From NCBI GenBank assembly GCA_032718475.1, contig JAUCBJ010001705.1:1-42076 (forward strand): a stretch of 42,076 nucleotides of DNA, given 5' to 3'. Below are positions 1 to 40,195 of this stretch, piece by piece. The first letter of the stretch is position 1, and every line of letters starts with the position of its first letter. The DNA is from Nemertoderma westbladi (Eukaryota; Animalia; Xenacoelomorpha). Made by a program: the position numbers and the translations under genes. The notes beneath the pieces were generated by a model. That model ran no database searches, had not been told where the DNA came from, and worked only from the letters and a program-made list of their open reading frames with translations.

Positions 1-741
1 GCTACTTATATTTTATGTAATCTTTATAACAAACATTATTAAGGAATCGAATTATACTTTACATATTATATTTATTTATTATTTTTTTTTTACCTAAATC
101 ATGATTAAATAAATAAATAGAATTAATGTACCGATTCGTGCGAGTAATTGATTTTATATGGACCTTGTAAAGTTAGTAGAGGTAAATGCGTCTGTAAAGA
201 CTGAAAGATTTTTAAGATATGAGTCTGGCTAAAAAACACCACATAATACTGGAGTAATGTACAGCATGTGCGTGTATTACGGCATTATATATATAGATAG
301 GAGATAGCAAGTACACCGTACACGTACATGGCAAGAGATTAATATGCTGACAAAGAGAGACCCACAAGAACTGAAAACAAATAATTTGGTCCCAGCCACA
401 AAGATGAAAGAAGGGCAATCTAACAACCGATTTTAATATTAATTTTATCTCCTTTGTGCTTTAGTGTATATATATGCCAGATGGATTTTGATAAATCATG
501 CCGAAATATATCATTTTTCAATTATGATCATTTCCAATTTTTGTGCATATTCTTAGGCCCGGGTCACACATGAGCTTTCAACTTTCAACATGCAACTTTC
601 AAAATGCACTAGTCCTATGTTCTATCTTACTTGAAAGTTGAAAGTTGGCATTTCCAGCATTGACAACCAATCAGAAGTTTAAGTCGTGTTTATATTAAAT
701 TATAGCAGCTACAGTATATAACATTTATGTTATATACTTTA

Positions 742-2032: not shown

Positions 2033-2420
2033 GAAATATAATATATCCAGCAGGAGTTAGTAGAAGTAAAGATAACCAACCCACCATCATTTTGCAATAT
2101 AATATTTATGGTTGGGTACTATTAATACATGTGTACATTGTAGATCAGTTGATCCACTGACTACTTGTTACATGAACAACAGCACATGGGTTCCACCATA
2201 AAGTCAGCTACAATGCACGAGCTGAAAGTCTACATAATGTATAACAATCGGAGATTAAATTCATTGACTTAACTTGTATTGTCCTGGTTACGGAATCATA
2301 AACTCTTTATTTTCGGTAGCCCATTTAATTAGATGAAAAACACTTTAGAACCTTTAGGATAATTGTTTTAATATACTTTGTACATTAGAAAAATTTAAAC
2401 TGTAGATAATAATAATTTTA

Positions 2421-3686
2421 ATGACCCCGTCAAATAGAAACGATATTGTGGAAGGATGGAGATTCTACTTCTTAGTGAGTTTCCTTATCGCCTTCCAAAT
2501 GATACCAGGATGGTGTACCAATTTAATGGAGTCATTCTTTCCTATTGTTGTCCAACAGCGGGGATGGTCAAACGCTCTGATTGGTGCTCTACTTGCCGCG
2601 TTTTCTCTAGTCAGACTATTGATCTATGTCGTCTGCCCACATGCTATCAGTAACTGGGGGACCCGGATTTCTATTGGAATGTTCGGAATTATAGGATCAA
2701 TTTCGCAATTGGCTTTTGGATTTGTGGAATATATACCCATTAATGAATATGGATTGTATATATTCGCGTGCTTTTTTCTACGAATTATTGAAGGTATAGG
2801 TCTTAACATTAGTTATACCTATTCTTACAATCTTTTGGTGGAATTGATGCCAAATTATCGAAGTTTCTTGAGTGGTATAGTTATTATAATTGCCTCCCTT
2901 GGATATACACTTTCACCGATTTTCGGTTCTGCTATTTATGTTCAGTGTGGGTTTGAATTTCCATTTGTTATTTCTGGTTTAATGTTTTTCATCATTGTCG
3001 TTTACATCTGGTTCGAGGCACCTGGTTATCTTTGCGACAGATGCGAAAACTCGGAGGATCGTCCGACATATAGCGGAATTCTCAAGAATCCAGGAATTAC
3101 AGTTTTACTTATTTTGCAAGGATATTCAGCGAGTTTGATATATTTTGCAAATGCTAACTATGCTGTCTATGTTCAAAGATACTACAATGCGACACAATAT
3201 TACATTGGGCTATATTTTATGATTTATCCTGTTCTTCAAGGTTCTATAAGTTTCTTCTTCGCCGTTTCGCTGAGTAAATGGACTACAATTTATCCAACTA
3301 TAATTGGTATTATTTTAGAGATTGTATCGGCGCAGCTAATCGGCCCAACCGAAGTACTCGGTATTCCGTATTCCTTAACGACTTCTCTTATTGGACTGTC
3401 GATACTTGGATGTGGGGGAGGAATGTTTTTTGTTCCTGGATTTGAGACTATAACTCGACTCGCTGTAAAAGTTGGTGGTTTCCGAGACAACGTGGATACG
3501 AGGGCTGTTCTCCAACAAGCTCTTAGAATTTCATTCTCTCTTGGTTATATAATGGGATCAGTGTTTGGGGGTCTTCTGAATGATCTGTTCGGATACCAAA
3601 TTGGTTCGTCGCTGTTTAGTCTTATTGGACTACCATTTGTGTTTGCTTTGATAGCGTTATTTTTCTGTCATTATGTTGATGAGTAA
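2421..3686 (+). CDS. Major facilitator superfamily transporter, SLC18B1-like, single exon
   Basis: 421-aa ORF with ~12 hydrophobic segments in two bundles split by a hydrophilic loop (CDRCENSEDRP); MFS-type segments FFPIVVQQRG, FFLRIIEGIG, LGYTLSPIFGS, GSVFGGLLND. Confidence 0.85.
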   Translation: MTPSNRNDIVEGWRFYFLVSFLIAFQMIPGWCTNLMESFFPIVVQQRGWSNALIGALLAAFSLVRLLIYVVCPHAISNWGTRISIGMFGIIGSISQLAFGFVEYIPINEYGLYIFACFFLRIIEGIGLNISYTYSYNLLVELMPNYRSFLSGIVIIIASLGYTLSPIFGSAIYVQCGFEFPFVISGLMFFIIVVYIWFEAPGYLCDRCENSEDRPTYSGILKNPGITVLLILQGYSASLIYFANANYAVYVQRYYNATQYYIGLYFMIYPVLQGSISFFFAVSLSKWTTIYPTIIGIILEIVSAQLIGPTEVLGIPYSLTTSLIGLSILGCGGGMFFVPGFETITRLAVKVGGFRDNVDTRAVLQQALRISFSLGYIMGSVFGGLLNDLFGYQIGSSLFSLIGLPFVFALIALFFCHYVDE

Positions 3687-3890: not shown

Positions 3891-5310
3891 ACTAAATGTT
3901 AACTTCCTTGGGCAGCCACCAAACATCGAGGTCAGCCCTACAAGGAAAATATATGACAAGACACTACCTATAGAAACAGGGGACTTCACACCTGCCGAAC
4001 TCCAAAGAAGCATTAAAAGCATGTCCAATAATAAAGCGAGTGGATTAGATGAAATCCCATGCGGAGGTATGGAAAACATGAGTGTTAAACAGACCATTAT
4101 TGAATGTTTGCAACCGGTTGTTAAAAGGGGAAAAGCCACCACCAATTGGGACTAAATGTCAACTAAAGGCTCTCCCCAAGGAAGGAGACCTCGGTATACC
4201 AACAAACTATCGTGGGATCTGTCTGCTTGTGGTAGGTGCCAAAATATACAATAAAATGATTCTATATAGGATTAGGCCTCACATAGAGAAACTACTGCGC
4301 AAGAGCCAAAACGGATTTCGACCAAATAGATCAACAATAGCTCAGATACTTGCACTACGGAGGTAAAATGCTTGTAATCCTAAGAGCTTATGGAATACCA
4401 GAAGTAATAGTTGCTGGCATTGGATTGTTATATTGTGGCACAGAAGATTATGATGATTAGGATTATGCAATGAGGATGGCAACAAAGGGTGAAGATCTGG
4501 GATTCACACTTCAAGAACGCAGAAGTAGTAGATATCCGGCAACTACAGTCACAGACACCGACTTTGCGGATGACATCGCCCTGCTCTCTAATACGCTAGC
4601 AGATGCACAGCTTCTACTAAATAAAGTGGAGAGGGCTGCTAAGGAGGTTGGATTGCATAAAATGCTTCCCAGACCGAATTAATGAGCTTTAATGTTGATG
4701 GAAACTTGACAACCATTAATAATAATCAACTAAGGAAGGTCTATGACTTCCAGTACCTTGGATCATGGATAGAGAGTAGCAAAAAGGACATAGAAGTTAG
4801 GAAAGCAAAGGCTTGGGTAACTCTATTAAAAATGGATACCATCTGGAAATCAGATCTCTCCAGGCACCTGAAGACTAAGTTCTTTTGAGCCACAGTGGAA
4901 AGTGTATTTTTATACAGGGGTGAGACCTGGACACTGATTAAATCACTTGAACAACGAATTGATGGTTTCTACACAAGACTACTAAGGGTAGCCATAAACA
5001 TCAGCTGGAGACAACACATGACAAACGCCGAGCTTTATGGTACAATACCACCTTATCAACCACCCTCCGTGAACGCAGATTAAGATTCAGTGGGCACTGC
5101 TGGTAAAGTAAAGACGAGGTCATACCAGATCTACTTTTCTAGCAACCAACTCATGGAAAGCGTAGTTGTAGACCGGCCATAACATAAATATATCAACTTG
5201 AAAGGGATACTGAACTTGGGAGAAACGAAATTGCGACAACTATGGAGAATCGGGAAGACTGGAAGGATCTCATTTCCACTGTCCGAGTTCGCTCGACCTA
5301 GTAGTAGTAG
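3891..5310 (+). mobile_element. RTE-clade LINE, 5'-truncated and decayed
   Basis: RT motifs KASGLDEIP, NYRGICLL, QNGFRPNRST, DFADDIALL, FQYLGS broken by stops, frameshifts and deletion of the LQGD region; (TAG)n 3' tail; 21-bp TSD TACAATCATTTCRTAATGTTA at 3870-3890 and 5311-5331 (1 mismatch). Confidence 0.9.
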
Positions 5311-5322
5311 TACAATCATTTC

Positions 5323-7175: not shown

Positions 7176-7381
7176 TTAAAAATTATGGCGACACCTCGTA
7201 GGGAGCATCTATTGGACATTTCGCTTTATTTCGTTTAGAAATGTAGAAGATTCTGCATGTCAACTAGTTTTATAACTACCACAGTCTTTCTTTAGGCCTA
7301 CTTCAACTTGCCTTGGTAAACTAAAACTTTCTACTTTGATCCGGTTAGCAGGTTTAGTGCATTGCAAGTAGATAGGCCTAC

Positions 7382-8328
7382 TACTACTACTAGGTCGAGC
7401 GAACTCGGACAGTGGAAATGAGATCCTTCCAGCCTTCCCGATTCTCCATAGTTGTCGCAATTTCGTTTCTCCCAAGTTCAGTATCCTTTTCAAGTTGATC
7501 TATATATGTTATGCCCGGTCGTCCACGACTACGCTTTCCATGAGTTGGTTGCCAGAAAAGTAGATCTGGTATGACCTCGTATTTACTTCGCCAGCAGTGT
7601 CCACTGAATCTTAATCTGCGTTCACGGAGGGTGGTTGATACAGGTGGTATTGTACCATAAATCTCGGCGTTTGTCATGTGTTGTCTCCAACTGATGTTTA
7701 GGGCTGCCCTTAGGAGTCTTGTGTAAATCAATCATCAATCCATCAATTCGTTGTTCAAGTAATTTAGTTAGTGTCCAGGTCTCACCCCCGTATAAAAATA
7801 CACTTTCCACTGTGGCTCGAAAGAACTTAGTCTTCAGGTGCCTGGAGAGATCTGATTTCCAGATGGTATCCATTTTTGATAGAGCTACCCAAGCCTTTGC
7901 TTTCCTAACTTCTATGTCCTTTTTGCAACTCTCTATCCATGATCCTAGGTACTGGAAGTCGTCTTACATCTTAGTTGATTATTATCAATGGTTGTCAAGT
8001 TTCCATCAACATTAAAAGCCATGAATTCGGTCTTCCCCGGTCTTGGTAGCATTTATTTGCAATCCAACCTCCTTAGCAGCCCTCTCCACTTTATTTAGTA
8101 GAAGCAGTGCATCTGCTAGCGTATTAGAGACAAATGAGAGCAGGGCGATGACATCCGCAAAGTCGGCTGTGACTGTAGTTTCCGGATATCTACTACTTCT
8201 GCGTTCTTGAAGTGTGAATCCCAGATCTTCACCCTTTGTGGCCGTCCTCATTGCGTAATCCAGCACAATTACAAATAGTAATGGTGCTAATGTGTCACCT
8301 TGCAGTACGCCAGCCAGGATTGAGAAAA
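7382..8328 (-). mobile_element. RTE-clade LINE 3' fragment, same family as 3891-5310, inverted
   Basis: GVLQGDTLAPLLFVIVLDYAMR, DFAD, RLRFSGHCWR, RGRP; same 3' end and (TAG)n tail; candidate TSD TAGATAGGCCTAC at 7369-7381 and 8353-8365. Confidence 0.88.
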
Positions 8329-9844: not shown

Positions 9845-11080
9845 TAGATAGATAGATTTATTTATACATTATGTAAAAACAATAACAAATACACCAAACA
9901 ATGTACCGGTATAAAGGTATTGTCCAACATAACATATAGGATTACCCCTAAAGCTTTGCAGCTTATTTCCAAGGGGGTCCTTTATGTTACTTCTACTTGG
10001 TTACAAATACAATATTACACTACGCTAACCTAAAACCAATATAAAACGTAATTACACTATTACATGTACAACTTTACCAAGAGCGTGACAATGCCCGACT
10101 CAACAATAAAGATGTAATGTACAGAACAATTTATTATAAAACGTAATTACAGTATAAATAGCAAATAATTAATAAACTAATAACTTACTGTAGGACTATT
10201 GTACCTATTTTTACATTGCACATGGAGGTGAGATTTAACTGCAGATTTAAAAGAATGTGGATTATCTAGGTTTTTAATTTCATTAGGCAGAGCGTTCCAA
10301 TTTTTAATGCCGTTAAAAAAGAAAGTATCAGATTCAAAGGATTTACAATTCGGGAGGTAGAAGTTTGAAGCACTAGCTCTGGTACTGTAAGAGTGTGTAT
10401 CGCGTACACTGCTAAATTTTTGTTTTAGGTAATTGGGACATTTACCATTATACACTTTATGCACATGGTTGAGGCGTAGCTGCTTAACTCTACTATCTAA
10501 GTTAAGTAGTCCAGATTCAGAAAAGTCATCTGGAGTTACGTGGTGCCTAGGTTTGTAGTCTTTAATAAATCGTACTACTTTATTCTGAGCTACTTGTAAT
10601 TTACATTTAAGCTGTTTGGTTAAGCCTTCATACCAAGAAGAGCACGCATAGTCCATGTGACACTGTATTAAAGAAGAGCAAAGTACTGTAACTTGCGGGA
10701 GTCGGTATTTAAACTATTTTTATTTCTGTATAGAAACCTAAGCCTACTGTTAACTTTCGTGAAAATATTTTTCACTGTGCTTTCTCCTGATAAGCAGTTA
10801 TCCAATGTGGCGCCTAAATATTTAACTTCCTTTTTATTTTCAATCTTATGTCCATTACTAGTGACTTCAAACTTAGTTACCTTCTTTAACTTTCTTTTGG
10901 AACCAAACAAAATACTTTTAGTCTTACCGTAGTGAATGGATAGCTTATTATCAACCAACCACTCATTACAGGATTCTAGAACTGCACTTAACTTTTGGGA
11001 AATATGGATAGGATCTTTATGAGAGAAAATAAGAGCACTGTCGTCGGCATATAAAATGAGTTTAAAATCGGGTGCAATAC
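9845..11080 (-). mobile_element. CR1/L2-group LINE, 3' fragment
   Basis: Minus strand reads LILYADDSAL...WLVDNKLSIHYGKTKSILFGS...VKYLG...DYACSSWY...HSYSTR...WNALP; frameshift near 10670-10690; 3' UTR, AATAAA and (TCTA)n tail. Confidence 0.88.
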
Positions 11081-11249
11081 TGCAATACAGTACCTGGCAG
11101 CAATACTCGAGCTAAATATTTATTTATTTGTACTTCAGCTCCTGTTTCACTCTAGCATACTTGAGGCCGTTAGGTCCGCTGTTAGAGATAGAATATATGC
11201 AACTTAAGACTGCCCGTCCAATAGAAGCGGATTAGGTGGGAGTGTGAGT

Positions 11250-11355
11250 GTCAGGGGCTAGTGGCTGAGCTGGTTAGCGCTACTGATGAGGCCTGTTAGG
11301 CCGAAACGTACGTATAGCGCTGGTTCAACCCCCGGTGACGCGCTTTCTAATTTTT
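11250..11355 (+). promoter_or_regulatory. Pol III type-2 internal promoter (A and B boxes) and T-run terminator around the ribozyme
   Basis: A-box TGGCTGAGCTGG 11262-11273; B-box GGTTCAACCCC 11322-11332; GTCAGGGG/CCCCGGTGAC closing stem; TTTTT at 11351-11355. Confidence 0.65.
11276..11321 (+). ncRNA. Type I hammerhead ribozyme with minimal helix III
   Basis: Helix I AGCGCTA(11276-82)/TAGCGCT(11315-21); core CTGATGA(11283-89); helix II GGCC-TGTTA-GGCC; GAAA(11303-06); helix III AC-GTAC-GT; cleavage triplet GTA, predicted cut after 11314. Confidence 0.88.
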
Positions 11356-11613
11356 CCACTTCTGAACAAACCCATAATATTCCACCTTTAATTACAGTTG
11401 CAACAGCTCATCTCCAATTTCTTATTTAGGCCTAATGGGGTAAAATTAAGTTCAGGCTGTTTAAAAATAACATACAGTAGGTCGATTCGCCGTGTCCCAT
11501 CCCACAAAGTTTTTATTTTATTCGAATATTTAATATAAAGATGTATGGTTAGGCCTATTTATTGATTAAACATTAAATAGTGTATAATATGTAATATTCG
11601 CCCAACAGGCTCA

Positions 11614-12845
11614 TATGGCGTCTGATTTGAGCCAAAATACCTTAGAATTAGAAATGTGTACCTTACATTTTTCATTAGCTTATATTTATAAGCATCGCTT
11701 AAAAGTATGGTATTTTCTTGCATTTGAATTTATACATCGCTTAAAAGTAAGCTATGTTTTATGAAGTTGACTTTAATAAATCGCTTAAAAGTAAGGTATT
11801 TTTTACAAGTTCTCTTAAAACATCGCTTAAAAGTAAGCTATGTTTTTTGTATTTGCCTTGAAAATCGCTTATAAGTAAGCTAAATTTTTGCAATTGCCTT
11901 GAAAATCACTTAAAAGTATGGTATTTTATTGCATTTGAATTTATACATCGCTTAAAAGTAAGCTATGTTTTATGAAGTTGACTTTAATAAATCGCTTAAA
12001 AGTAAGGTATTTTTTACAAGTTCTCTTAAAACATCGCTTAAAAGTAAGCTATGTTTTTTGTATTTGCCTTGAAAATCGCTTATAAGTAAGCTAAATTTTT
12101 GCAATTGCCTTGAAAATCACTTAAAAGTATGGTATTTTATTGCATTTGAATTTATACATCGCTTAAAAGTAAGCTATGTTTTATGAAGTTGACTTTAATA
12201 AATCGCTTAAAAGTAAGGTATTTTTTACAAGTTCCCTTAAAACATCGCTTAAAAGTAAGCTATGTTTATGTAGTTGACTTTAATAAATCGCTTAAAATTA
12301 AGATATTTTTTACAAGTTCTGTTAAAACATCGCTTAAAAGTAAGCTATGTTTATGTAGTTGACTGTAATAAATCGCTTTAAATAAGGTATTTAATTGCAG
12401 TTCTGTTCCGACATTGCTTAAAATGAAGTATGTGTTTATGCAATAATATAGTTTAAAGTAAGCGATGTTTTTACAGTGTCGTTTAAACATAGTTTAATGT
12501 AAGCGATGTTTTTACAGTGTCGTTTAAACATAGCTTAAAGTAAGCGATGTTTTTACAGTGTCGTTTAAACATAGTTTAAAGTAAGCTATGTTTTTGCAGT
12601 ATTTTGTCCAATCAAATGCGTTGTTGACAATATCTGCAATTAGTAAATAGATCACAAGAGGGCGCTGTTGAGCAATTGTTGTATTCCAGTATTCGATCAG
12701 CAAAATCGAATTTCTGATAGGGTACACGGTACGGACAGTATGGTTAACAGAATACAGTAGTTACACTGCAGTAGGTATGGCATCCGAAAATTTCATCTCG
12801 GAAATTGAGAGCCTAATACGGAGGTGCCAACAAATTTCAGAAGAT
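11614..12845 (+). repeat. Left terminal inverted repeat (~1.23 kb)
   Basis: Reverse complement of 27233-28223; ~42-bp subrepeats (ATCGCTTAAAAGTAAG core) in ~211-bp five-unit blocks, plus 41-bp repeats. Confidence 0.93.
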
Positions 12846-14609
12846 GAGACATTTTCAAACTTAAATATAATAGAATATTTAACACGTATTTTTCAATATA
12901 AGATTGATGTACTGGCTCGCCTAATAGAGGATGGGAATACAGGTAATAGCCCTAGCGCCGCCGATACCAGTACAACACGTAATTCTGGAATAATTTATTT
13001 AAATCAAAGCCTCCGTGAATGGCTGCATTGGTTATTAAGTTTACCTATTGCGCGGCATCAAAGTAGCTACTGCATTAGTGCTGCATTACATTGTCCCACT
13101 CTACCTAAAACAGGAGATGCTGGTCGTCCACGTTTCGATGTATCTAAAGACTTATTAATAAACTTGCTGGAAGAAAAATTCTCTAAAGTTCAGATATCCC
13201 GGATGCTCGGTATCAGTCGACGAACCATAACAAGAAGAGTTAGCGATTATGAACTCCAAAATCGAAATCGAATACAAACTGTAGATGATGATGAACTTTT
13301 GAATCTTGTAAGTTTGTTGCATCGGGAGTATATTCACGCTGGTTGTCGGATGATGAAAGGCCTTCTCTTGGCTCGTTTTAATCTTAATGTCCCTTTATAT
13401 CGAGTACATGCTTCATTGCGTTCTGTTGATCCAATATTAGCGAGCGAAAGGTGGGGTGCTGTTGTAAGGAGGAGGACTTATACTGTGTCTGGCGCTAATG
13501 CTCTTTGGCATATTGATGGGCACCACAGCCTTATACGGTGGGGCCTTGTAGTGCATGGGGGGATCGATGGATATTCTAGATCAGTTGTATATTTGTGTTG
13601 CAATTCCAACAATTACGCAATGGCTGTTTTGAAATTATTTCAAGAAGCTGTGCAATGTTACGGCCTTCCATCTCGCGATAGAGCAGACAAAGGTGGGAAA
13701 AACCGTCAGGTTGCGCATTTTATGATCGAAAATCGTGGCATTAATAGAAATAGCTTCATAACCGGTAAATCTACGCACAACCAGCGGATTGAGAGGTTAG
13801 GCAACAGCCTCCACCCTTGCCATTTCTAATTTCTCAATGACTTACTCTCACTAATTTAAAGTATTTTTATAAATATATTTCATTTGAAATATTTAAATAT
13901 AATTTTTAAATATATTTAAATAAAATAAACAAATAAACATAAAGTAGCGATAAACAACTTGTTAATGGTACCTCTAGGCTAAGGCTTTGCTCACTTCTTG
14001 GCTCGCCCCAAAGTCGGTATTACTTAGTACATTTACAATCATAATACATGATAGGAATTGTAATGCTTACTGACTTCGTGGCTCGCCCCACTATTGCGAT
14101 TTAGACACTTAGACCCTGGGTGGGGGCATTTAATGCCTCATATGTAAAGGTTGTGGAGGGATGTTTTTCGGACTGTATGCCAGACCTTCTACAGTTTGTT
14201 TTACTGGCTTGAATCCCGGGAAGAACTTACTCCTACAGACAACTTACATTTATATGCTCTACAATATATATTTCGTCCACGAATAAACCGCGCGCTTCGA
14301 TAATTTTGCATTGCATGGAACACACATGGACTTCGTTCAGAACATAACTGGTCTCCAAACCAAATATTTGCGAACAGCCTTATGGCCGGTACATTTGCTG
14401 GTGATATGTTATCGGAAGAGGCTGATACATATGGTATTGATTACGAGGGATATATTATGGAAGAAGACGAGTCCATCGTTGATGTCGATGATATAAACAA
14501 TCCTCTCCGAGATGAAGATATGGCCGAATTCATAACTAGATTCGGTCACATTGAACAGTGCAATGATTTTGGCATACAATCGTACATAAACTGCAGGGAT
14601 TCTATTGCA
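12777..14609 (+). pseudogene. DDE (rve/integrase-like) transposase; exons 12777-13795 and 14150-~14609; one in-frame stop
   Basis: GRPR + HTH (ISRMLGISRRTITRR), WHIDGHHSLIRW, HGGIDGYSR, PSRDRADKGGKN, STHNQRIE; GT-AG intron 13796-14149 restores RIERLWRDVF; then LHLYALQYIFRPRINRALR*(TAA 14301-03)FCIAWNTHGLRSEHNWSPNQ; 3' end interrupted by a LINE tail. Confidence 0.9.
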
Positions 14610-14980
14610 TTTAAGTTTAAGTTTAATGTTTCCTCAGAACAAGCACCCAAAATACAAAAAAAAAAAATGTTATAACAAAGGAACATGGTTTGGCTATAGC
14701 AAAGCTAGTGTAGCCTTACCATATTCCTATAAGAGGAGGAAACGTGGAAAAATGCTGAATAAGAGAAGTGTGACAAAATTTTCAGATTAAGTTTTTTAGA
14801 TTAATTTTGTTTTAATTACTAGCTAAAAAGCTTTAATTACTATTATATCTTATATTAAATACTATTGGAATACCTGAATACTACTGTTATAATTATAAAC
14901 TGAATTTTAAACTACTTCTAGTACTAAATAAATATAATAAATATATATTTATATTATTAAATAATTCTAAATAATTAATT

Positions 14981-15943
14981 ATGACTATGGCGGAGGAATT
15001 CATTAAAATCCAGAGCGAAATTATATCAACAATAAGGTCAATCAAATCGAAGAAAAGTGTTAACGCGAACGACGAACAATCTCTGATGGACCATTTACTT
15101 TCAATGAATGCTCTTTATACCATTGCTGTTGGCAAACTAAGCGAGGCCCAACACGAACTCATCGAATACAAGGACAAACTCACCATGGCCACATCTGTTC
15201 CGATGACGAACCCGACTAGCAACTCCGTCCAGACCGATATCCTGCGCGAGCATGTGGATTCACAATCCCACGCGCCCCAGCAAAACAACAAGCGATCTGG
15301 TGATCCGCATGCCACTGCGATGGCGACCGTAACATCCGGGAACGACGATAACTCACAAAACCCATGGCTCGAGGCACACACTCGACGGCAGAGGAGAGGA
15401 AACAGACCAGGTCCGATAGGACCGCCAACACCATACATCCCCGTTACTATCGGAGAGGGAGGAAGCCAGCATCCTAGGGAGTCACTTTCACGCCAACCGA
15501 CGGAACACCGAACATTACGTGGAACTAAAATCGGAAGCTCATTACATGCTGCAGCACCACCCTCATCACTCACCCAGAACCACCCGGTGCCTCCGCCACG
15601 GAAAGCTCATATCCACGTAGGCCGCGTAGCACTCGACGAGTCCGAGGAAACTCTGGGAGAGTATCTTCAGTGTGAAAAGATCCCATTTACCCAAATCTGT
15701 GGACTCCCAGTTCACCCCGAATCGGTGTATCGTTCTTTCCACGTTATATGTGACCAGGAACATAGACAAATGATTATGAACCCCGAGATCTGGGAAGAGG
15801 GAATAACAGTTAAAAACTACAAATTGACCAACGGCGAGAGAGAATCATTTGGCCTACGCCCGCGGGTACAACACCGCCACCGCCAGGAAACCCAACATGT
15901 GACGGCGACAGCCCCTCGTGTAGACGGTAACGGAGCGGATTGA
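14981..15943 (+). CDS. LINE ORF1 protein
   Basis: 320 aa: N-terminal coiled-coil-like segment, Pro/Arg-rich linker, RRM-like C-terminus (HIHVGRV...YRSFHV...MNPEIWEEGITVK); lies directly upstream of the endonuclease. Confidence 0.8.
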   Translation: MTMAEEFIKIQSEIISTIRSIKSKKSVNANDEQSLMDHLLSMNALYTIAVGKLSEAQHELIEYKDKLTMATSVPMTNPTSNSVQTDILREHVDSQSHAPQQNNKRSGDPHATAMATVTSGNDDNSQNPWLEAHTRRQRRGNRPGPIGPPTPYIPVTIGEGGSQHPRESLSRQPTEHRTLRGTKIGSSLHAAAPPSSLTQNHPVPPPRKAHIHVGRVALDESEETLGEYLQCEKIPFTQICGLPVHPESVYRSFHVICDQEHRQMIMNPEIWEEGITVKNYKLTNGERESFGLRPRVQHRHRQETQHVTATAPRVDGNGAD

Positions 15944-18779
15944 CAACCAATCTCTAAAAGTAAAATCAATGTTTCGCTGTGGAATGTGGAAGGATGGAAC
16001 TACCTACAAACAAATCTAAACCCTAAAGAACTATTTAGTAACTCTGACATACTATTACTAACCAAAACGTTTCAAGTAGAAGAAAATATTTGCAGCGCCC
16101 CATATAAACCTTTCGTCCAACCAGCAAAAAAGAATCAATATGGCCGCCCATCTGGAGGTCTAATTGTCCTAGCTGTTCCAAAATTAGATCCTCAACTACT
16201 TATCAAAACAAATGAATACATGGCAATTAAGACAATGGCTGGAATTTATATTGTCTTCTATTTTACCCCCGACACTCCTGTAGAAGAAGTAATATTTGCA
16301 ATAAACGAATCACTATCATACACAGATGCTGATGACACAATAACTCTTGGTGGGGATTTCAACTGTCGAATCGATTCGGGGGATAGGGGAAACGACCTGA
16401 CAGAATCACTCCAAGATATTGGGTTCGAGTTACTCAATAATCCGAAATTAAAGACATATATCTCTCCCCAGGGCGAGAGTACTATAGATCTTCTCTATAT
16501 AAGAAACCCCACTTCCCACCGATGCACAAACATCACGGTCAGCTTAGAGAGCAATCCTATCAGGAAGCACCAGAAAATGCATCTATCAATGGAGTACTCC
16601 AAAGAAAGTGGTGAATGTAACCCAGAACCTGTTTTTCGAAGTAGTAGGACTCTAAACCTTAACCGCCTTGAGCAGGAACTTAATGAAGACATGATCGAAT
16701 TCTTCTTAGAAAAGGAAGACATCGACGCAGCGACAGCACACCTAACAGAAACAATAAACCCTGCGTCATGCCCCCCCCCCCCCCCCCCCCCCCAATAAAG
16801 TCTCAGACCACCACAATAAACCATGGTTCGATGACGAGTGCAGGACTTGCAAGCACCAACTACTTGAGATGATGGCCAACCACCAAAACTCGCCTGCTAA
16901 CAATGACCTGTACTGGGCGAATAGGAAGAAATATAAAGCCTTACTGAAAAACAAGAAAATAGCGTATGAGGAAGAAATGCTACTCGAAAACTTAAAACAG
17001 GCGGAGATCAAACCTTGGATGATCTTCAAAGAGGGGAAACTGGCGAAATCAATCCCCATAGAACCAGCAACTCTGAGGACCCACTTCGACAATTTATTGG
17101 GTGTAAGACTGGACCCTCCCGGAAGCAGCACCCCACCTTCGCCATCTGAACAGGAGAAATGTGTTGAAGAGTGGTACAATGAGCCAATCAGAGAACAAGA
17201 GGTAAGCGATGCTATACAGAACTCTGCATCAAAGAAAGCCTGCGGCCCAGATGGAATATTTTATGAACATTTAAAAGCTGCAGGTCCCCTCCTAATTACA
17301 ATTATAACTCTCCTTTTCAACTTCTGCCTAAACATGGGCGCAATCCCACTGTCATGGACATGTAGCATCATCAAGGCTATATACAAGGGGAAAGGGAGCC
17401 TGATGGACCCAAATAACTATAGAGGTATCGCTCTTATCTGTGTTTTCCTAAAATTATTAACCTCCATACTAAACAAACGGGTTCAATGGAACATATCCCA
17501 CCTGTTCCCAGATGAGCAATATGGATTTATACCAGGGAGATCAAATATGCAAGCAATAAGGAAACTCGTCTCAGATATTAACAAAGCCCTTCACTCAAAA
17601 GAAGACCGTGTAATGTATGTAGCCTTTGTTGATTTTAAAAAGGCATTCGACCTAGTGAACCGAGCCTTGCTCCTTGGCAAGATATATAACGATTTCGAAA
17701 TAAAGGGGAAATTATTCGGCTTCATTAAGGCATTATTAACAAATACAATAAAAATATCCGACGGTTTCAGCCTATCAAAACCGATCACACAGTTGCGAGG
17801 AATTCTGCAAGGAGACTCATTCTCCCCAACTTGCTTCATAATTTTTATTACCAGCCTCGCAACTGCACTCCGTGCAATATCGAGAGCGATACGATTCATA
17901 TTCTTTGCGGACGATCTAGCCTTTTATTCTTCGAATCCACAAGTTATCCAACGCGGTCTTGATGTCCTAGAAAAATGGTGTATAAATAATTCAATGGAAG
18001 TGAACCTCTCTAAAACAAAAATAATGAAGTTCCGTAAAGGTGGCCGGCTGTGTATTAACGATAAATTCTACTACGGGGGAAAATAAGTTCTCATCTGCAA
18101 TGAATACGAATATCTTGGCATAACCTTGCAACCGACCCTCACTTTTACCAAACATGTTAACAAAAGAAAACGGAAATCTTATGCAGCGATTGGTTGTCTT
18201 CGAAATTTAAACAGACTGTCAATATGTACTGCAATGAAGATCTTCGCAATGAAAATACAGCCAATGGTATCCTATGGTCTTGTAGAGATTGGTTGCTTCT
18301 TTACAGTTGCACACATGAAAGAACTGGATAAAATCAAATCAAAGTTTATTAAAAGGGTGCTCTCCCTACCATCCAACTCATCGACAACCATGGCCATTAA
18401 AGCTATAGGAGAAAAAACATTCATTGAAGATCTCCTTATCGTAAACCCCACGCTATTCAACCCTACAGCATTAGACCAATATCGCTCTTACCGAACCGAA
18501 CGCACAGAAAACTTCAACCGGCAGGGTTACACAAGGGGCCCAGCCTTCACAACTTCGAGTTGGAAATCCTCACAGCAGAGAAACCGGCACACTGTCACCA
18601 GGGCAACCACCGCCCATGGGTTTCACTACCTCATCTGCTTGACCTGCACCCCTTTCCACGAGCTGTCATCGCAATGTATTTGTAAATATTGTAAGAACTC
18701 AGCCGTGGACAGATACCACGCTCTCAACTGCGATTGCTGCCCCTCTCTGACAGAACTGGCCAGCCACCCATATCACTAA
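15944..18779 (+). pseudogene. LINE ORF2 (APE endonuclease, RT, C-terminal CCHC-like knuckle), disrupted
   Basis: WNVEG, GRPSGG, GDFN, STID; KPWFD, GPDGI, NYRGI, DFKKAFD, LQGD, FADD, YLG; CKYC-x8-H-x3-C. Frameshift at C23 (16771-16793) and in-frame TAA 18084-86. Confidence 0.9.
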
Positions 18780-19321: not shown

Positions 19322-22300
19322 TCACGACCCAGAAAGAAGATTGATTTTTACTTGTTTTTTGAAATGCACCTTATTACTGCTATCGCGGATATCTCTCGAG
19401 AGGGAAATCCAGAGAAGAGGGCCCTGCATTGAAAGGGACTGATGCCGGACTTCCGTGTGCGTACTGGGTAAATGAAAAAGACCAGCGGAGGCAGAGCGAG
19501 TATTGTATGTGTGAACAGATGATGCTTTAGTGAATAAGTGAGAAAGAGGATGAGAAGGATTGTGGTAAATTTCATACATTAGTAAGAGGACCTGGTATTT
19601 ATACAGACGATCTAGTGGTAAAATGCGTAGCTGCTGATAAATAGAAAAAGATGAGGACTGATAGTGGCTGAAGGTAATACATCGGACAATTTTATTAAAT
19701 TTGGTTTTGAGGGGACGAGTAATAGATTTGAATGTATTTCCCCATACTATCAACCCGTAAAAAATATAGGGGTAGACTAACGCAGAGAATAGAGTTCGCA
19801 TTATAATTATATGAGCTGGGACAATATGGCGTAGTTTATAGAATAATCCTCCACTCTTGGATATTTTTTTCAAGATATGGCTGATGTGTTCCCTATATGA
19901 TAAATTGGAATCTATTAATATACCTAGATATTTAGATGTTGTTGTGGATCTAATTGTTTTGTTATTAATGATTATATGTGGTGGCGGTATTTCTGACTTT
20001 GATTTTGAGAATATTGTATATTCAGTCTTGTCTGTATTTAGAGTTAGTTTGTTTTCAGTTAGCCATTCGGATAACAGTTTGAGTTCAGAATTCATATAGT
20101 CGATTAGTGGAGAGATATTTCGATCGTTGCACATCAGTGAAGTGTCATCGGCAAATAAGGTTACTAATAGGGATGTGCAGTTTGGGAGGTCATTGATGTA
20201 CAGTAGAAATAAAATCGGCCCGAGGACCGAACCCTGCGGAATACCACAGATTATAGACCTAGAAGATGATAAAACATTATCTACTGAAACGAATTGTTGT
20301 CTATTACATAGATAACTAGAAATGAGTGCTAGAGGACTTCCGCGGATACCATATATTGGGAGCTTCTTTAATAGAATCGAATGGTCGAGGGTATCAAACG
20401 CCTTTTTTAGGTCTAGATACAGTACAGTCGCAAGTCGGTGGTCATCAAGGGCTTCCCTAAGGGACTCTACGATATTTATAATGGCAAAAGACGTTGTATA
20501 TTTTTTACGAAAACCAAACTGGTTAGGTGAAATAATTTTGAATTTTTCTAGATAGGATATCTGTTGCGTGTAAATGATGCTTTCAAATACTTTGTGAAAT
20601 ATCGGGAGTAAAGATATAGGTCGGTAATTAGTGGTAGCTAGAGGATCTCCACCTTTAAACACTGGAATTATTTTTGCAATTTTTAGAGACGTTGGAAAAT
20701 GTCCACGGCGAATACTTAGATTTATTAAATTAGCTAGATGTGTCGAGATTATTGGGGCAGCGATTTTCACCAAGTAAATAGGAAATTCGTCATTAGAAGA
20801 GGTATCGTCCTTCAATAGTAGTAGATTGTAATGGATTTCTACTGGGGTAGTCTCAGATAACAGAAATGAGTTTGCTTTGGAATGGCGGATATGCCGAGTT
20901 GGACAACGAGCAAATGAAGGCAGTGCAGAAGCTAATTTAGAACCGATAGTAGAGAAAAACTCGTTGAATTGGTTTGCAATATCTTTAGGGTTAGTGAGCG
21001 AGATCACGTTACCATTATTGTTAATGTTTAGGCGCTTGGGAATAGAATGTTTATTATTACGATGTAATAAAGAATTTATAGTTCCCCAGGTCTTTTTAAT
21101 ATTATTCGAATTTTTGGCAAACTCAGATTCATAGAAATTTTTTTCAGCTGCCCGCAACAAACTAGTTAGCTTGTTGCGGTACGACTTATAAGTATTATGG
21201 TTCACAGAAGTTGGGTTTGTCATGTATAAGCCGTATAATTTGTTTTTCTTATGAATTCCTAAAATTAGACCAGAAGTAAGCCACGGCTTTTTTGCAACAA
21301 ATTTTTTATGTAACTCTTTGCGAGGTAAATTATGTTTGCAAATATTTGTAAAATTTTCATAAAAATTATCAAATTTATTTTCATCTTGAACCGTACTTGA
21401 AGAGTATTCCCACGACTGAAATTCGAGGTCGTGGATAAATTTTTCCTTGCTAAATTGTTTATAGTCACACACGTACTTCTTTTCGGCAGGTCTAAAATAA
21501 GTGGAATAGTTGTCCAATACTATGAATGTTGGTAAATGGTCCGTGGAGCCCACTTCGCACAAAAAAACCCCAGGTGAGCATATGGCAGAATGAATATTAG
21601 AAATTACATGGTCCAACAGGGTCGCCGAGTGGGGTGTTATTCGGGTAGCTTGGGAAATCGTCTGCGTAAATCCATTTGAAGTTACGTTATTTAAATAATT
21701 TTGTACTTGTAGTTTATTGGGGCTCAAGACATCAACATTATAGTCACCCGTTAAAATTACATCATAATTATTACTAGCCAATTTAGCAAGGTGGTCATTG
21801 AAAGTGGATTGAAACTGGTCCAAATTAACACTCTGAGTACGGTATACACAGCCAATAATTAAAGGCTTATTAGGGTGATTGCGAGTAATTTCAACCCAGG
21901 TGTTTTCAGGGCCGGGAAAGTGTAGGTCCGGTCTAATGGTACCTTCAAGTTCATTACGTATGTATATGGCAGTACCGCCTCTGTCAAGCTTACCGTAAGT
22001 TCTATAATCACAAATGGGTTTCTTGTAACCTTCAATGCAAATGGCATCTAGATCATGATCTTTTGTCAAAAAAGTTTCAGAGAAAGTTAAAATGTCAAAC
22101 TTCGATGACAAAGATTGTAGAAAATCCGTGATAGCAGAAAAATTTGACGTAATACTCCTACAATTGAGATGAAACACGGAAAAGCCGTTATGACAGTCAT
22201 CAAATATCTGGCTAAATTTTGTTTCGTTAAAATATTCATCTGTAATAATATTTGAAACGAGATTTCCATCAGGGTTTATGGAATTAAACATATTATCAGT

Positions 22301-22607
22301 AGGGTCAGTATCCAGACTCATAAGATCTTCCATATCGCAGCCAAATATATCCTTATCATTATTGTCAACAGAATTAAAGGGAAACAAATTTAAGTAGCAA
22401 AAATTACACCAATGATTCGCGTCTTTTTGGATCCCATTAGCAAAGTGTGTTGGATCCAGGAAGGAGCCACTTGTCTATGAAATTGGAATCTACATAGGCA
22501 ACAAAAAAAGGACTGTCAGTCCGTTCAAATTTAGTATAGCATAATCCACAACATACGTCAACATCGGGAGGTCTAAGCGACTGAAAAGCCAATGTGACTA
22601 CATACAT
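19322..22607 (-). CDS. LINE ORF2: PHD finger (frameshifted near 22470) + APE endonuclease + RT
   Basis: Open 1021-aa frame 22387-19322 with HLNCRS, SETF, GGTAIY, GDYN, TDH, NYRPISLL, DLKKAFD, PQGSVLGP, FADD, YLG; upstream CGLC..CCLCRFQFH / WCNFC from ATG 22607. Confidence 0.9.
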
Positions 22608-27232: not shown

Positions 27233-28223
27233 ATCATCTGCAATTTGTTGGCACCTCCGTATTAGGCTCTCAATTTCAAATATGAAATTTTCAGATGACA
27301 TACCTACTGGCTACTGCAGTACTCTGTAACTATACTGTTAACCGTACTGTCTGTACCGTGTACCCTACATATCAGAAATTCGATTTTGCTGATCGAATAC
27401 TGGAATACAACAATTGCTCAACAGCGCCCTCTCGTGATCTACTTACTAATTGCAGATATTGTCAACAACGCATTTGATTGGACAAAATACTGCAAAAACA
27501 TCGCTTACTTTAAACTATGTTTAAACGACACTGTAAAAACATCGCTTACTTTAAACTATGTTTAAACGACACTGTAAAAACATCGCTTACTTTAAACTAT
27601 ATTACTGCATAAACACATACTTCATTTTAAGCAATGTCGGAACAGAACTGCAATTAAATACCTTATTTAAAGCGATTTATTACAGTCAACTACATAAACA
27701 TAGCTTACTTTTAAGCGATGTTTTAACAGAACTTGTAAAAAATATCTTAATTTTAAGCGATTTATTAAAGTCAACTACATAAACATAGCTTACTTTTAAG
27801 CGATGTTTTAAGAGAACTTGTAAAAAATACCTTACTTTTAAGCGATTTATTAAAGTCAACTTCATAAAACATAGCTTACTTTTAAGCGATGTATAAATTC
27901 AAATGCAATAAAATACCATACTTTTAAGTGATTTTCAAGGCAATTGCAAAAATTTAGCTTACTTATAAGCGATTTTCAAGGCAAATACAAAAAACATAGC
28001 TTACTTTTAAGCGATGTTTTAAGAGAACTTGTAAAAAATACCTTACTTTTAAGCGATTTATTAAAGTCAACTTCATAAAACATAGCTTACTTTTAAGCGA
28101 TGTATAAATTCAAATGCAATAAAATACCATACTTTTAAGCGATGCTTATAAATATAAGCTAATGAAAAATGTAAGGTACACATTTGTAATTCTAAGGTAT
28201 TTTGGCTCAAATCAGACGCCATA
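27233..28223 (-). repeat. Right terminal inverted repeat (~0.99 kb)
   Basis: Near-identical inverse of the left TIR, shorter by about one 211-bp block and one 41-bp unit; identical spurious 74-aa ORF in both TIRs. Confidence 0.93.
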
Positions 28224-29296: not shown

Positions 29297-30928
29297 TTCT
29301 GCGCTTGAACAACGTTCTTATGCGCCTGACAGCCTGAGTCAAAAATTCTGTGCTCGAACAACGTTTTTCTGGGCCTGACTGCCTGAGTAAAAAATTATGC
29401 ACTTGAACAAAAAAAATGAACAAAAATTATCTGTTTTTGTAGGCCTACATACCCAGATACCGGTACTGCCTGACTGCTGTACTGACATAATAAATAAATA
29501 ATTTTTATGTTACCGTACGTCAGTATGTGTGTTAATTCTGTATACCAGTCTGCCAGTACAGCAGTAGGCCTATGCCTATACCGTAGCAGCGTAGGCTAAC
29601 TAACTGACTAAAACAGACTTGTATTTGTTTACCGGCGACCGGTAGGCCTACTTAATTAATTAATTAATTAAGCATTTAAGTCAAATATTTTCTTTCCGTT
29701 TTTCTTCACAATCTTCGTAAATTGTATTTCCAGATCTTTTCGTCACACCGTTGTGATATGAATGAGTCCGATATAACTCCGTATTTCACCGTTTGGGTCC
29801 GTTTGGGTTTTTTTAGTCCTACCGGTGACCGGCTGACCGGGGCCTATCCTACATCCTATAGCCTAGTACATACTTTGCCAAGATTCAGCTTATGGTAAAC
29901 AAATTAAAATCACGGCAATGAAAGAAGGTTTTCATTTTCAGACATTTCGAGTTCGCCCTCTTGCGGCGGACTGGAGAACTGCAGCAGTACCGGTTGCACT
30001 ACCCAATCACATTCCAGCCTTCATCAAAAAAGATGCAGCTGCAGCATGCAGGCATGTAGTCGTGGTCTGGTACTGTAATATATTATAAGGCTCAGCTTAA
30101 ACAGATTAAGATGAAGGAAATGGATCGATTTTGTCCCAAATTACCCAGTTTACCCTATCTGCCTATTGCGTCTGTCTATGTACGTACAGTGTCAGCAGGT
30201 CAGAGTGTACAAATGTATGCTGTACACTGCAGCACTGTACAGCTGTACATAGTTACAGAGTTAGGGTTCAACAGAAGGCACTTTATGGGGCCGAACCGAA
30301 CCGAAGCAGGGGCCGACTTTGGGCCGAACCGATCCGAACCGAAGTTCAGAAAGTTAGCAAGTTATGGCAGTATGGTCATCATAACAGCATAAATTCGTAT
30401 TTACGTCTTACGTCACTATACTAGCTGACTGGCAGTGGCAGACTGGTACCTATTTTGGTCAGCGGGCTTAGCGAGAAAGCTATGATTAATTAAAAAAATA
30501 AGTACTACAAAATAAAATGGCAATATTTACATTACTGTACATTACTAACATAAACTACCGATACTGTATACTTACTGCTGTACTGTATGCATGCACTTAC
30601 TGTAGCGTAGCCTATGCAACACATTTTCACCCATAGTCAGATAGTACTGCTGTACTGTGTGACTGTAGTAAGCCGTATAGTAGTAACATCAAATTTAGAA
30701 AACCTCAATAAACACTAAATGTACAGGTAGTCTTTGTAATACTATTTATATATGAGGTAGTAGGTATATTTGGTATTATGTATCAAAGTTATGATTAATT
30801 AAAAAATAGGTGTACTACATAAGTAAAATGACAATATTTAGCCTAACCTAAACTACTGTATAATTAAGCTAATTTTGAAACTACCCAAGTAATCTGGAAA
30901 CAATTAAAAAATTAATGCCATTTAATTG

Positions 30929-33900
30929 GGTCCGACGAATTTGTACAAAAAAAGTACAAAAAAATACAAAATAGTAGGCCTACAATATAGTACAAAAGAA
31001 TACAAAAGAGTACAATAAAGTGCAAAAATAGTACAAAAGAGTGCAAAAATAGTACAAAAGAGTACAAACGAGTGAGAAACGCTTACAAAACGTGTATCCA
31101 AGTGTAGTTCAAATCGTTTAGAGGGGCGCACATGATGTGCAAAATAAAACAAAGCATTGTCTGATTGTGGGGCGAGCCATGCATTGAGCGGGGGCTGATC
31201 TAGCAGTCAGACAGTCAGAGAGTATTACAATACAATCTTATGAGTTTTAATGCAGCTTTTTGTTTTCGAAAAACACCCAAAACTGTCCCAAGCCCGCAAA
31301 ATTGCAGAGGGAGAACTCAATAAAGTTGCAGATAGAGGCGTACATACAGACATACATAAACATAGCCCACATAACGTAGCATACAGTCTATCCTTCAGTA
31401 CTGCAGTACTGGTATATGGGCTACTTTAAGACTATGACCTAAATTTTGAATCACAGTTACAGTATAGAGAGTTTTATCTACCCACTGCATAATATGTATT
31501 GCATTATATTGTATTATACGAACTGTAGCCTATTGGCCTATACTTGTATGCCAGTCAAAATCTACATGAATCAAAGTTCTGTCAATCATTTCATACTGAC
31601 CACAGAACCATGGCCGCTAGTGATTGACACTGTAGCGGCGCATATTTCTGTATTTCAGGTGCCGTTGCATTTGCTTACAATTTATTATATTTGTATACAA
31701 GTGCAGTAAGGTAGTCAGCCAGTTAGAGGTTTTGTGCAGCCAGATGAAATCTCACTTTTTTCCAGCCAGTTCATAGAAACACCAGCCCGCACCTGGCTGG
31801 TCTGGATATCAACTGGCTGGCCAATTGCAGTTCCGTTATCGGGCTGCTTTGTTCAGTATGATTTGAAGGAGTTAACCCTCTCCAGCTCTGATAAATGATT
31901 GACAGACTTTCTTGTGATGTAGCCGCAATGCTTGACAGATTTCTTGTGATATAGCCGCAATGCTTGCAGGTGTTCTTGTGATGTAGCCGCTCTGTGGGAG
32001 GTTGGGTATAACTGAAATAGAGGCGCCCCTTGGTGCTTGGTGCTGTGCCTGGATTACAACTGTGAACTGTAGATGCTGAATTAACCTTACGTTAAGTTTG
32101 TAAGTTGTAATAATAAGTTGATTTTGTGTTAAAGTTTAAAATGCGTTAAATTATGCAGCGTTATCTGTTTGTGCTTTGGATGTAACTTTTCCTCTCTCAT
32201 AAGTAAGCCATAAGCTGGCTGCTACTGATAGACAATAGACATTGTGACATGGCTGCATGGCTTATGAAAAGATTCATAATTGAATAATCTAAATACATGG
32301 ATGGCAATTAACCTTATACATATTACATAATAAAGTAATAAACTTACATAACATATTAGCCAATAAAGTAATTAACCTTACATATTACCTAATAAAGTAA
32401 TTAAATTAACCTTACTTTACCTTACATATTATCTAATTGAGTATTGCGGTCATCGGTCATGCCATGGTCTGATGGTATAGTTGATAGTTTAATAATATTA
32501 ACTATATATACGTCATTGTTCATAAAATAGAACTTTTATAGCGTTACAGCACGAGTGATTTTGTTTCCCTAGCGACAGTGAGTGAAATAATAGAACAAGG
32601 GCCGTAAAAGCTTTAATGTGCTAATTATGAACAATGACGAATCTAATTTTATTTATTTGTGGGGAATTATTTGTAGTTATGAACTCAAACTTTCTAGAAC
32701 AACCAAATAATGACGCGGTGACATACATACATAGTATGGCGTAGGGACATACTGAGAAATATTGTCACACTGCGATGTAAAGCTGGAAAATATGTCGCCC
32801 TGGCGATTTGGTAGTGCGAAATTAATTCCACACAAATAAATAAAATTGTATTGGAAATATTACATTATATTAATTATAATATGTTTCGCGGGATTTGGAG
32901 GTGTGAGAAAATGTCCCACCTCATCTCATACTGACTGAATAATTATGTTTACTCTAAAATCTATAGTCTATCTGCAAGATCAATTTAATTTCTGAAAAAT
33001 TTAAAAAATTATCAGAACTTAAAATTTTCAGATAGGGGAGGGGGGGGGGGGGGGGGGGAGCTGGACGCAATAAAAATGCATTCCTCTCCAGGAGAAATTC
33101 GACGCAAATAACGGCCCATGCAGCCATGTGAAGAATACAAGACTTTCTACCGTTATATTTCACTTTGCAGTTACCCCCATGTGAAGAATACCGGTACCAG
33201 GTTTTCACCAAAAACACAGGTTACAGAAGGGTTGAATCTAACCAAAACAATAAACAAATTAGAATATGTACAGGTTAAGACAGAAACTACAGCTGTTGAG
33301 CTAAATAAAGTTCTGCAGTTTGTTATAGTACGCAGGTAGGCTAAGCTTACTGCGTAATATCCCCCACGGCGTTGTAGGCTACTTGGCTTGACACTAGTAT
33401 TGCAGTATCAGAGTATGGGCTGTGGATTCGGTAGTCTATTAGTTGGTTGGTTAGTCTGTTGCTGTTGTGTCAATGGTACTGGTATGTATGTAGAGTCCAG
33501 TGAGCTGTAAATAATTGGCAGCCATCTGGCAATAGGGAGCTTTTGAGTGACATACTAGTACGTCGGCTCTCTGATTGATCTCAGAGAGGTTATGTTTGGA
33601 CACCATCTGGCTGGTAAATATCATCTGGCTGGATTTTTGATTTAATTATATTATTTACAATAACTTCTTCATACAAGCTCTAAATTTATTGTACAAGCAC
33701 GTCAAGGTGTAGAATTTGAAGCCGGTTCTAATGATACTAATATCTCCGTGCCCAAATTTTATTGAGAGTGCCCGTTTAAATTTAAAAATTCCAATGATAA
33801 GCTACGGGGATTTCCACTTAAAAACTGCAGAATCCAGCCCCCATCTGGCTGTACAAAAGACATGAACTGGCTGACTGTACCTTACTGAAGTGTAGTGTAG

Positions 33901-34092
33901 TGTATACTTACTATATACAGCTACACTGGCAGGTGACTGGTATACCTGTATACACGTTTTGTATGCGTTTCTCACTCGCTTGTACTCATTTGTACTATTT
34001 TTGCATTCTTTTGTACTATTTTTGCACTTTATTGTACTATATTGTACTATTTTGTATTTTTTTTATACTTTTTTGTACAGATTCGTCGGACC
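30929..34092. mobile_element. Non-autonomous TIR element with ~170-bp TIRs
   Basis: GGTCCGACGAATTTGTACAAAA...GAGTGAGAAACGC...AAAACGTGTAT (30929-31097) is the inverse of 33950-34092; possible degenerate 8-bp TSD ATTTAATT/ATTCAATT. Confidence 0.78.
31698..33892. mobile_element. Nested TIR element flanked by TA
   Basis: CAGTAAGGTAGTCAGCCAGTT...CAGCCAGATG inverse to CATCTGGCTG...AACTGGCTGACTGTACCTTACTG; internal CAGCCAG/CTGGCTG repeats; no ORF. Confidence 0.6.
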
Positions 34093-40193: not shown

Positions 40194-40195
40194 AC

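Follow-up and report, generated by a model that had tools for sequence, protein, structure and literature searches.

The locus raises the question of whether a self-cutting RNA motif enclosed by the promoter boxes of a tRNA-like gene head belongs to a mobile element, and it touches the two open points on animal retrozymes, namely their mode of transcription and the enzyme that mobilises them. The window, here the whole stretch of DNA that was analysed, comprises 42,076 bp of the Nemertoderma westbladi assembly (contig JAUCBJ010001705.1, forward strand). An earlier note, made from its letters, had read the motif as a hammerhead ribozyme built into a tRNA-like Pol III unit.

Extent and parts of the window copy

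Alignment to its family (family A) placed the element at 11092-11423 on the plus strand (332 bp, ~96% to a young family A unit), which corrected the extent of 11100-11370 given earlier. The copy is solo and consists of one 341-bp unit less 9 bp, running from unit position +120 round to +108 (numbering from the predicted cut); it terminates at the second of two hot spots of insertion ends (+101 to +130), where a second reverse-transcription start may lie. No target duplication was found. With no second unit following it, the copy can probably not release a monomer, and it is likely a dead solo insertion, inactive as a source. The broken LINE fragment whose shortened end abuts it does not resume beyond the retrozyme.

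The closing stem and the T5 run lie where the earlier note had put them (Table 1); T5 is the only stretch of at least four T in the plus strand of the unit, and T6 takes its place in most family A copies. In the predicted hairpin the outer pairs start upstream of the tRNA-like start and would hold both cut ends of the monomer together.

Table 1. Positions of the retrozyme parts, the neighbouring fragment and further frames of the window
Feature	Position	Strand	Remark
Predicted long hairpin, ribozyme at tip	11223..11363	+	Folding of a family unit (prediction)
Acceptor-like closing stem, 5' strand, and leader	11250..11261	+	GTCA at 11250-11253; likely region of Pol III start
A-box-like motif	11262..11273	+	9.9 bits; 60 nt before B box
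Type I hammerhead motif	11276..11321	+	Predicted cut after 11314
Hammerhead helix I	11276-11282 with 11315-11321	+	7 bp plus T-G pair
CTGATGA	11283-11289	+	
Hammerhead helix II	11290-11293 / 11299-11302	+	GGCC, 4 bp, 5-nt loop
GAAA	11303-11306	+	
Loop of hammerhead helix III	11308-11311	+	Palindromic GTAC; helix of 2 bp
GTA triplet	11312-11314	+	
B-box-like motif	11322..11332	+	15.6 bits
Closing stem, 3' strand	11336..11339	+	TGAC; place of tRNA acceptor 3' strand
T5 run	11351..11355	+	Possible Pol III terminator
First hot spot of insertion ends	11375..11394	+	+61 to +80; putative start 1 of reverse transcription
~40-nt 'tail' between the two hot spots	11387..11423	+	Insertion-end positions
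Broken LINE reverse-transcriptase fragment	10177..11070	-	Outside element; shortened end abuts retrozyme
Membrane-protein frame, presumably transporter-like	2406-3686	+	Uninterrupted, 426 aa
Presumed LINE fragments, inverted pair	4460-5312 and 7379-8261		From translation
Presumed second, broken LINE	14975-18779	+	From translation
Presumed LINE-type endonuclease/RT frame	19322-22474	-	1050 aa, open; from translation
Exon-like pieces, presumably RING and SH3	35334-35663, 37438-37570		

Other features of the window

Long inverted repeats (11614-12845 and 27233-28223; 95-100% complementary, made of 41-85-211-bp subrepeats) flank ~15 kb with an integrase-core frame (12672-13829, PF24764) and nested LINEs, and the stretch between them looks like a large DNA transposon. 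A Twister-P1-like motif at 31244-31315 on the plus strand (39.6 bits, E 2.4e-5, cut-off 67.2) lies within ~30927-31707, a copy of a separate repeat of ~800 bp with at least 41 matches (40 of 134 candidates scored) and an inverted piece at ~33886-34093; copies of the motif at 7 of 7 other loci scored 36-56 bits. The exon-like pieces are followed by two tandem arrays (37570-41509; 35 bp x 74 and 49 bp x 27). A weak Rfam hairpin-ribozyme match on the minus strand (41654-41791; 17.4 bits, E 0.58) is probably due to chance.

The hammerhead motif

All motifs of a complete type I hammerhead were found between the A box and the B box, as had been claimed, and genome copies and box scores bear the claim out. 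By the definitions available from PMC4209133, a canonical type I motif has the conserved core, G10.1-C11.1, a helix I of ~6 bp and a helix II of 4 bp, and a short helix III has 1-2 bp with a palindromic loop. On sequence comparison with these definitions the window motif is a canonical type I hammerhead with short helix III, a description that replaces the term 'minimal' used before.

Within the window, the bare core pattern was not enriched (3 matches vs 1.99 expected), the folding stability of the 91-nt domain was no better than that of shuffles (z -0.59), and ARAGORN called no tRNA. The proposed Infernal/Rfam check did not recover the motif above cut-off: a scan of the whole window detected no hammerhead, and a scan of 301 bases returned Hammerhead_3 at 19.2 bits (E 0.12), below the gathering cut-off of 48.5. 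Genome-wide, the 52-nt core had 78 exact copies vs 0 for the reversed pattern, the hammerhead pattern gave 1825 matches vs 134 for its control, and a pattern of A box plus core matched 245 times with 0 matches for its reversed control. The hammerhead is regarded as real because of the 78 exact core copies, the genome-wide pattern excess and box scores above those of 300 shuffles. It is highly probable that family A RNA cuts itself, a putative activity.

Matches in metagenome contigs to a hammerhead-plus-B-box pattern (115, of which 1 had both helices of at least 3 bp, in a collection poor in animal DNA) were treated as chance. Four metagenome contigs (L120, L134, L146, L190) carry a common type III hammerhead-like motif unrelated to family A.

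Copies and arrays of family A

The family A unit is 341 bp long and protein-free, and its tandem units measure 340-341 bp. The 25 nt that follow the cut recur exactly at least 455 times in the 407-Mb genome, with 0 matches for the reversed-pattern control, and a DNA search of the same genome returned at least 47 matches (40 of 1118 candidates scored). Arrays reach ~5.8 units with the hammerhead motif in every one of them. Both the genome-wide family and the tandem copies expected by the earlier note were thus recovered, the latter as 341-bp arrays of up to ~6 units, and family A fits the DNA-level definition of a non-LTR retrozyme.

Within an array, the median difference between units is 1 nt (42 pairs) vs 7 nt for units of different arrays (588 pairs), and in 5 of 12 arrays a private variant is common to the units and absent from every other array. 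This homogeneity favours repeated copying of one unit, with contributions from local amplification and subfamily structure.

Two candidate observations were set aside. The idea that helix II descends from the anticodon arm of tRNA-Asn, with which young copies share a 6-nt word, was rejected because older lineages have another loop, and the match is likely a coincidence. One run, of uncertain kind, yielded a 371-nt contig that goes round the unit once; tandem DNA explains it equally well, and it was not counted as circle evidence.

tRNA-type boxes

Boxes were scored with a weight matrix built from 19 distinct tRNA cores of the assembly, some of which look bacterial. The A/B pair of family A scored 25.6 bits, a tRNA-range value (18.4-33.8 bits for 25 tRNA sequences of the assembly) that was reached by 0 of 300 shuffles, in agreement with the tRNA-derived boxes read from the letters earlier. 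The pairs of the other families described below scored 34.4 (B1), 23.8 (B2) and 25.2 bits (C), with 0 of 300 shuffles reaching the score in each family. Five other hammerhead regions gave -1.7 to 12.8 bits, and the best of 214 window tiles gave 18.3 bits, a control that serves as no more than background, since the element itself was split at a tile border.

Bacterial-looking tRNA genes were seen in clusters on two contigs (G000:C1846 and C2853; loci L073, L075, L088, L099 and L100), and the assembly may include contaminant contigs.

The boxes of family A are 60 nt apart, vs 43-46 nt in the 19 tRNA cores, and stand at -53 (A box) and +8 (B box) relative to the cut. Its head pattern, searched at normal tRNA spacing, gave 21 matches, of which 19 were deleted family copies and 2, the sole matches outside the family, were tRNA-Asn genes. 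Alignment of family A to tRNAs scored 48.5 vs a shuffle maximum of 44.0, the best two being Met-type tRNAs, a weaker signal than that of family B (below). The origin of the family A frame from a tRNA is well supported, its isotype apart.

Two further families

The 100 listed hammerhead-pattern matches included two further large families, B and C. Family B (loci L051-L055, L274-L293 and L357) has a unit of 368-370 bp that repeats the family A layout, running from the closing stem through A box, hammerhead and B box to the other strand of the stem and a T5; its T5 stands at +33, and the T run falls at +33 to +40 in A and B. Its two halves align best to tRNA-Lys(CTT) (57.5 vs a shuffle maximum of 47.5), so that its ribozyme stands in the place of the anticodon and variable arms. 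A compensatory change distinguishes the closing stems of subfamilies B1 and B2.

Family C (loci L056-L060 and L352) has a 412-bp tandem unit without a T5 run, in which a whole tRNA head lies just upstream of the hammerhead; its pattern gave 483 matches, the 100 listed ones all belonging to the family, and its arrays reach 15 units on G000:C939. The arrangement given for Sm-alpha in the available description, with the whole promoter upstream of the hammerhead, is found in family C and is absent from family A. Apart from the ribozyme core and short words, A, B and C have no similarity to one another. The hammerhead-inside-tRNA layout is present in two sequence-unrelated families (A and B) of one genome.

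Insertion ends

Ends were determined for 72 family A insertions from 73 loci after 4 rows had been removed as the same place; some of those counted resemble duplicates of one event (e.g. L018/L021, L235/L243 and the two arrays in L239). Two windows, +60..95 (50) and +100..135 (46), hold 96 of the 109 outer ends. Of 37 two-armed insertions with head-to-head inversion, 23 use both sites, one for each end, and in 3 the two ends share a site. In 32/72 insertions an automated, uncurated procedure found a word of 10-17 nt common to the flanks near the ends. In a second sample, for which the B-box side was the sole selection criterion, 90 arms at 78 loci were drawn from the first 100 of 443 listed matches; 76 of these 90 arms had their 3' end at +61..80 or +101..130. 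The two end sites are ~40 nt apart; measured from the T run, 3' ends fall 35-85 nt further on. In family B, 32/35 ends fall at two sites, 9/10 pairs use different sites, and duplication-like words accompany 13/25 insertions.

The available text of PMC8557442 and PMC3846280 describes Penelope-like elements by a 30-40 bp one-sided tail, an inverted 5' copy and an AT-rich target, and that of PMC11167929 reports that the anole Penelope element PAc primes in vitro at two internal sites, on both nicked strands. Family A insertions likewise have AT-rich targets, a one-sided tail and inverted arms; since this end geometry matches the Penelope tail and inversion, Penelope-type mobilisation is likely. 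The genome holds candidate autonomous elements, with 829- and 834-aa RT frames between hammerhead-bearing repeats and, in a further candidate, a 993-aa frame of RT plus GIY-YIG. Among 55 Penelope-like loci, drawn from 150 matches to one RT fragment and sampling part of the lineages, no autonomous partner sharing terminal sequence with A, B or C was found, only short chance words.

Several smaller features of the ends were recorded. Family A 5' ends cluster near -120 (9/89) and -240 (6/89) from the cut; the latter lies roughly one turn of the unit away from the +115 start, and both clusters may reflect hairpin ends or AT-rich microhomology. Several second arms of family B begin within 10 nt of the cut. 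At L353 (7050-9340), a 47-bp minisatellite, whose unit includes the A-box half of family A, adjoins tandem Penelope-like frames, and L382 holds a local tandem of a short fragment from the 3' part of the ribozyme through the B box.

Template and dimer folding

Of 89 arms, 55 extend upstream of the tRNA-like start, 69 carry both boxes and 2 end within 10 nt of the cut. The cut site lacks a preceding A in 12 copies, and three of these begin exactly at the cut. A weak excess of 5' ends occurs at the tRNA-like start (14/89 in -75..-55 vs 7 and 8 in the adjacent windows), a figure that subfamily divergence near this start can inflate. A count in which all insertions span the cut (72/72, 25/25) was true by selection and was dropped. 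Since copies cross the cut and extend upstream of the tRNA start, the template was likely a ligated circle or an uncut multimer.

Co-folding of two family A domains predicted a double hammerhead (-46.0 vs 2 x -17.5 kcal/mol), and a lone unit was predicted to fold with a misfolded core. Loop III is self-complementary in 132 of 140 sequences (GTAC 99, GTGC 29, GCGC 4; overlapping loci may count twice), its variants including a wobble subfamily and a compensatory one. The cleavage as dimers expected by the earlier note is accordingly upheld as a capacity, through co-folding and self-complementary loops, and may not be an obligation: the available part of PMC7229834 reports that most invertebrate retrozyme motifs cleave efficiently and that dimers are needed mainly for vertebrate ones. 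For Xenopus retrozyme dimers, 8 of 9 did not cut according to the portion of the source available. As a circle, the family A unit was not significantly more stable than 40 base shuffles (-81.6 vs -77.7 +/- 5.7 kcal/mol); the family B circle gave -102.7 vs -81.3 +/- 4.9 kcal/mol for its shuffles.

Proposed mechanism and alternatives

The reading that we consider the most plausible, with moderate confidence, is a self-cutting 341-bp repeat with an internal tRNA-derived Pol III promoter, whose RNA would be circularised and copied by a Penelope enzyme into AT-rich DNA. On balance, TFIIIC may be expected to bind the A and B boxes straddling the ribozyme, and part of the Pol III transcripts would read past the T5/T6 run into the next unit. 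This run is the main difficulty for the proposed mechanism: as seen from the promoter, both priming sites are located beyond it, so that a Pol III transcript ending at the run cannot serve as template.

The same obstacle to the priming sites counts towards a less likely alternative, to which we give about one chance in four, that a Penelope-mobilised retrozyme keeps its tRNA boxes as a relic for RNA structure and is transcribed by read-through from a neighbouring promoter, the route proposed for retrozymes at large. In the predicted hairpin the A box is paired with the B box, so that structure alone could keep them. The abundant B2 subfamily lacks a full A box, having lost its GG (A box 4.9 bits), and one divergent family A lineage has 4/12 A-box positions changed; 5' ends form no clear peak at the tRNA start, and retrozymes 'seem to lack promoters' and carry no motif pointing to a partner according to the available text of a 2020 review (PMC7761336). 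Box conservation was seen only in small groups (L218/L219, 2/23 vs 33/115 in the rest), which were preselected on the B box. The relic view is opposed by the presence of tRNA boxes, in two layouts, in three sequence-unrelated hammerhead families of one genome. The B box, moreover, is unchanged between B1 and B2 (0/11 changes vs 42/290 elsewhere) and between old and young family A, and family C has kept both boxes outside the ribozyme core.

Under the Pol III reading, two ribozymes would then cut, probably aided by pairing of the palindromic loops III, and free a 341-nt monomer. As the cut falls between the boxes, a linear monomer would begin with the B box and finish with the A box, and a copy with the whole promoter can arise only from a circle or multimer. 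It is reasonably probable that the terminal hairpin would hold the ends for a host RtcB-type ligase, which would rejoin the A-box half to the B-box half; RtcB closes mussel and axolotl retrozymes in vitro, as reported in the part of the source available.

Rather improbably, the template could instead be uncut linear multimeric RNA, the ribozyme being dispensable for transposition and no circle being formed. Copies that cross the cut are equally compatible with uncut RNA and with circles, the core of a lone unit is predicted to misfold as described above, and in the available text of PMC11167929 the dominant substrate of the anole Penelope protein is uncut RNA, with the ribozyme dispensable in vitro. 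Arrays that are near-identical inside, with a private variant in all units of 5/12, as repeated copying of one unit would predict, speak against this template, as do the core and self-complementary loop III kept in all three families and the 3 copies that begin exactly at the cut.

For the last step of the preferred mechanism, a Penelope enzyme would, with very high probability, nick both strands, one being primed at +75 and its partner at +115, which would yield inverted arms, a one-sided tail and partial-to-multimeric copies. A conventional tRNA-headed SINE moved by a LINE, as a 105-nt box-to-T5 transcript or a head-starting monomer, would suit the boxes, closing stem and T run in tRNA-gene geometry and the LINE fragment that the window copy abuts, and is nevertheless most improbable, being already contradicted by the end distribution: copies do not begin at the tRNA head (14/89 arms start near it and 55/89 pass it), priming lies 35-85 nt past the T run at two sites, so that the 105-nt mobile unit and SINE-like start of the earlier note were given up, the units show circular permutation and frequent head-to-head inversion, and the LINE is not resumed past the element.

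Beyond the Penelope-copied circle itself, we suggest tentatively, at somewhat less than even chances, that a hammerhead replaced the tRNA anticodon and variable arms at least twice, and that a promoter split by its own ribozyme is rebuilt via a tRNA-ligase circle and Penelope copying; the tRNA-like ends may recruit the ligase, and the T run may attenuate transcription to short self-cutting RNAs.

Comparison with known systems

In the titles, abstract openings and text passages of the openly accessible papers searched, no account placed a hammerhead between the A and B boxes of a tRNA. Families A and B carry a candidate promoter together with the Penelope scar, including different start sites per insertion (23/37 in A, 9/10 in B). 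If the proposed mechanism is true, the two families would represent passengers of Penelope enzymes that descend from tRNAs, and would offer a compact natural way of making RNA circles from a Pol III unit. Among other non-autonomous retroelements, tRNA-derived SINEs have internal A and B boxes of tRNA origin.

As far as the available parts of the sources go (PMC7229834, PMC7761336, bioRxiv 10.64898/2026.07.22.740005), family A resembles metazoan non-LTR retrozymes in its non-coding tandem units (150-450 bp in that group) with one type I hammerhead each, low GC, target duplications of >4 bp, the occurrence of monomers and multimers, proposed Penelope dependence and the lack of an LTR-type layout. 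It differs from the non-LTR retrozymes described there in the tRNA-type boxes round the ribozyme and in the Penelope tail and inversion scars. Similarity to Penelope terminal repeats, found in 21/57 Xenopus families in the accessible account, was not found for family A among the 55 loci.

With the Schistosoma elements Sm-alpha and Sj-alpha (PMC6765202, PMC2770079, PMC8490949, each available in part), family A shares a tRNA-derived Pol III promoter (a candidate promoter in family A), a type I hammerhead, a similar repeat length (~335 bp in the Schistosoma elements) and frequent tandem arrangement. According to a review legend, the promoter of the Schistosoma elements stands ahead of the ribozyme, which is also the arrangement of family C. 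In families A and B, by contrast, the ribozyme lies between the boxes, so that cutting would separate them.

Helenus TRIMs also combine A and B boxes of tRNA origin with a non-autonomous retroelement, there within LTRs (PMC10886601, available text). Family A differs from them and from tRNA SINEs in having no fixed 5' start at the head and no LINE-type tail or LTR, and in that a ribozyme replaces the anticodon and variable arms.

Penelope elements such as PAc of the anole, as described in the accessible parts of PMC11167929, PMC8557442 and PMC3846280, share with family A two start sites 30-40 nt apart, a one-sided tail, an inverted 5' copy, AT-rich targets with duplications and a hammerhead in the repeat. 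Family A departs from these elements in its lack of a reading frame, its GC-rich tRNA-derived frame and its starts ~75 and ~115 nt after the cut.
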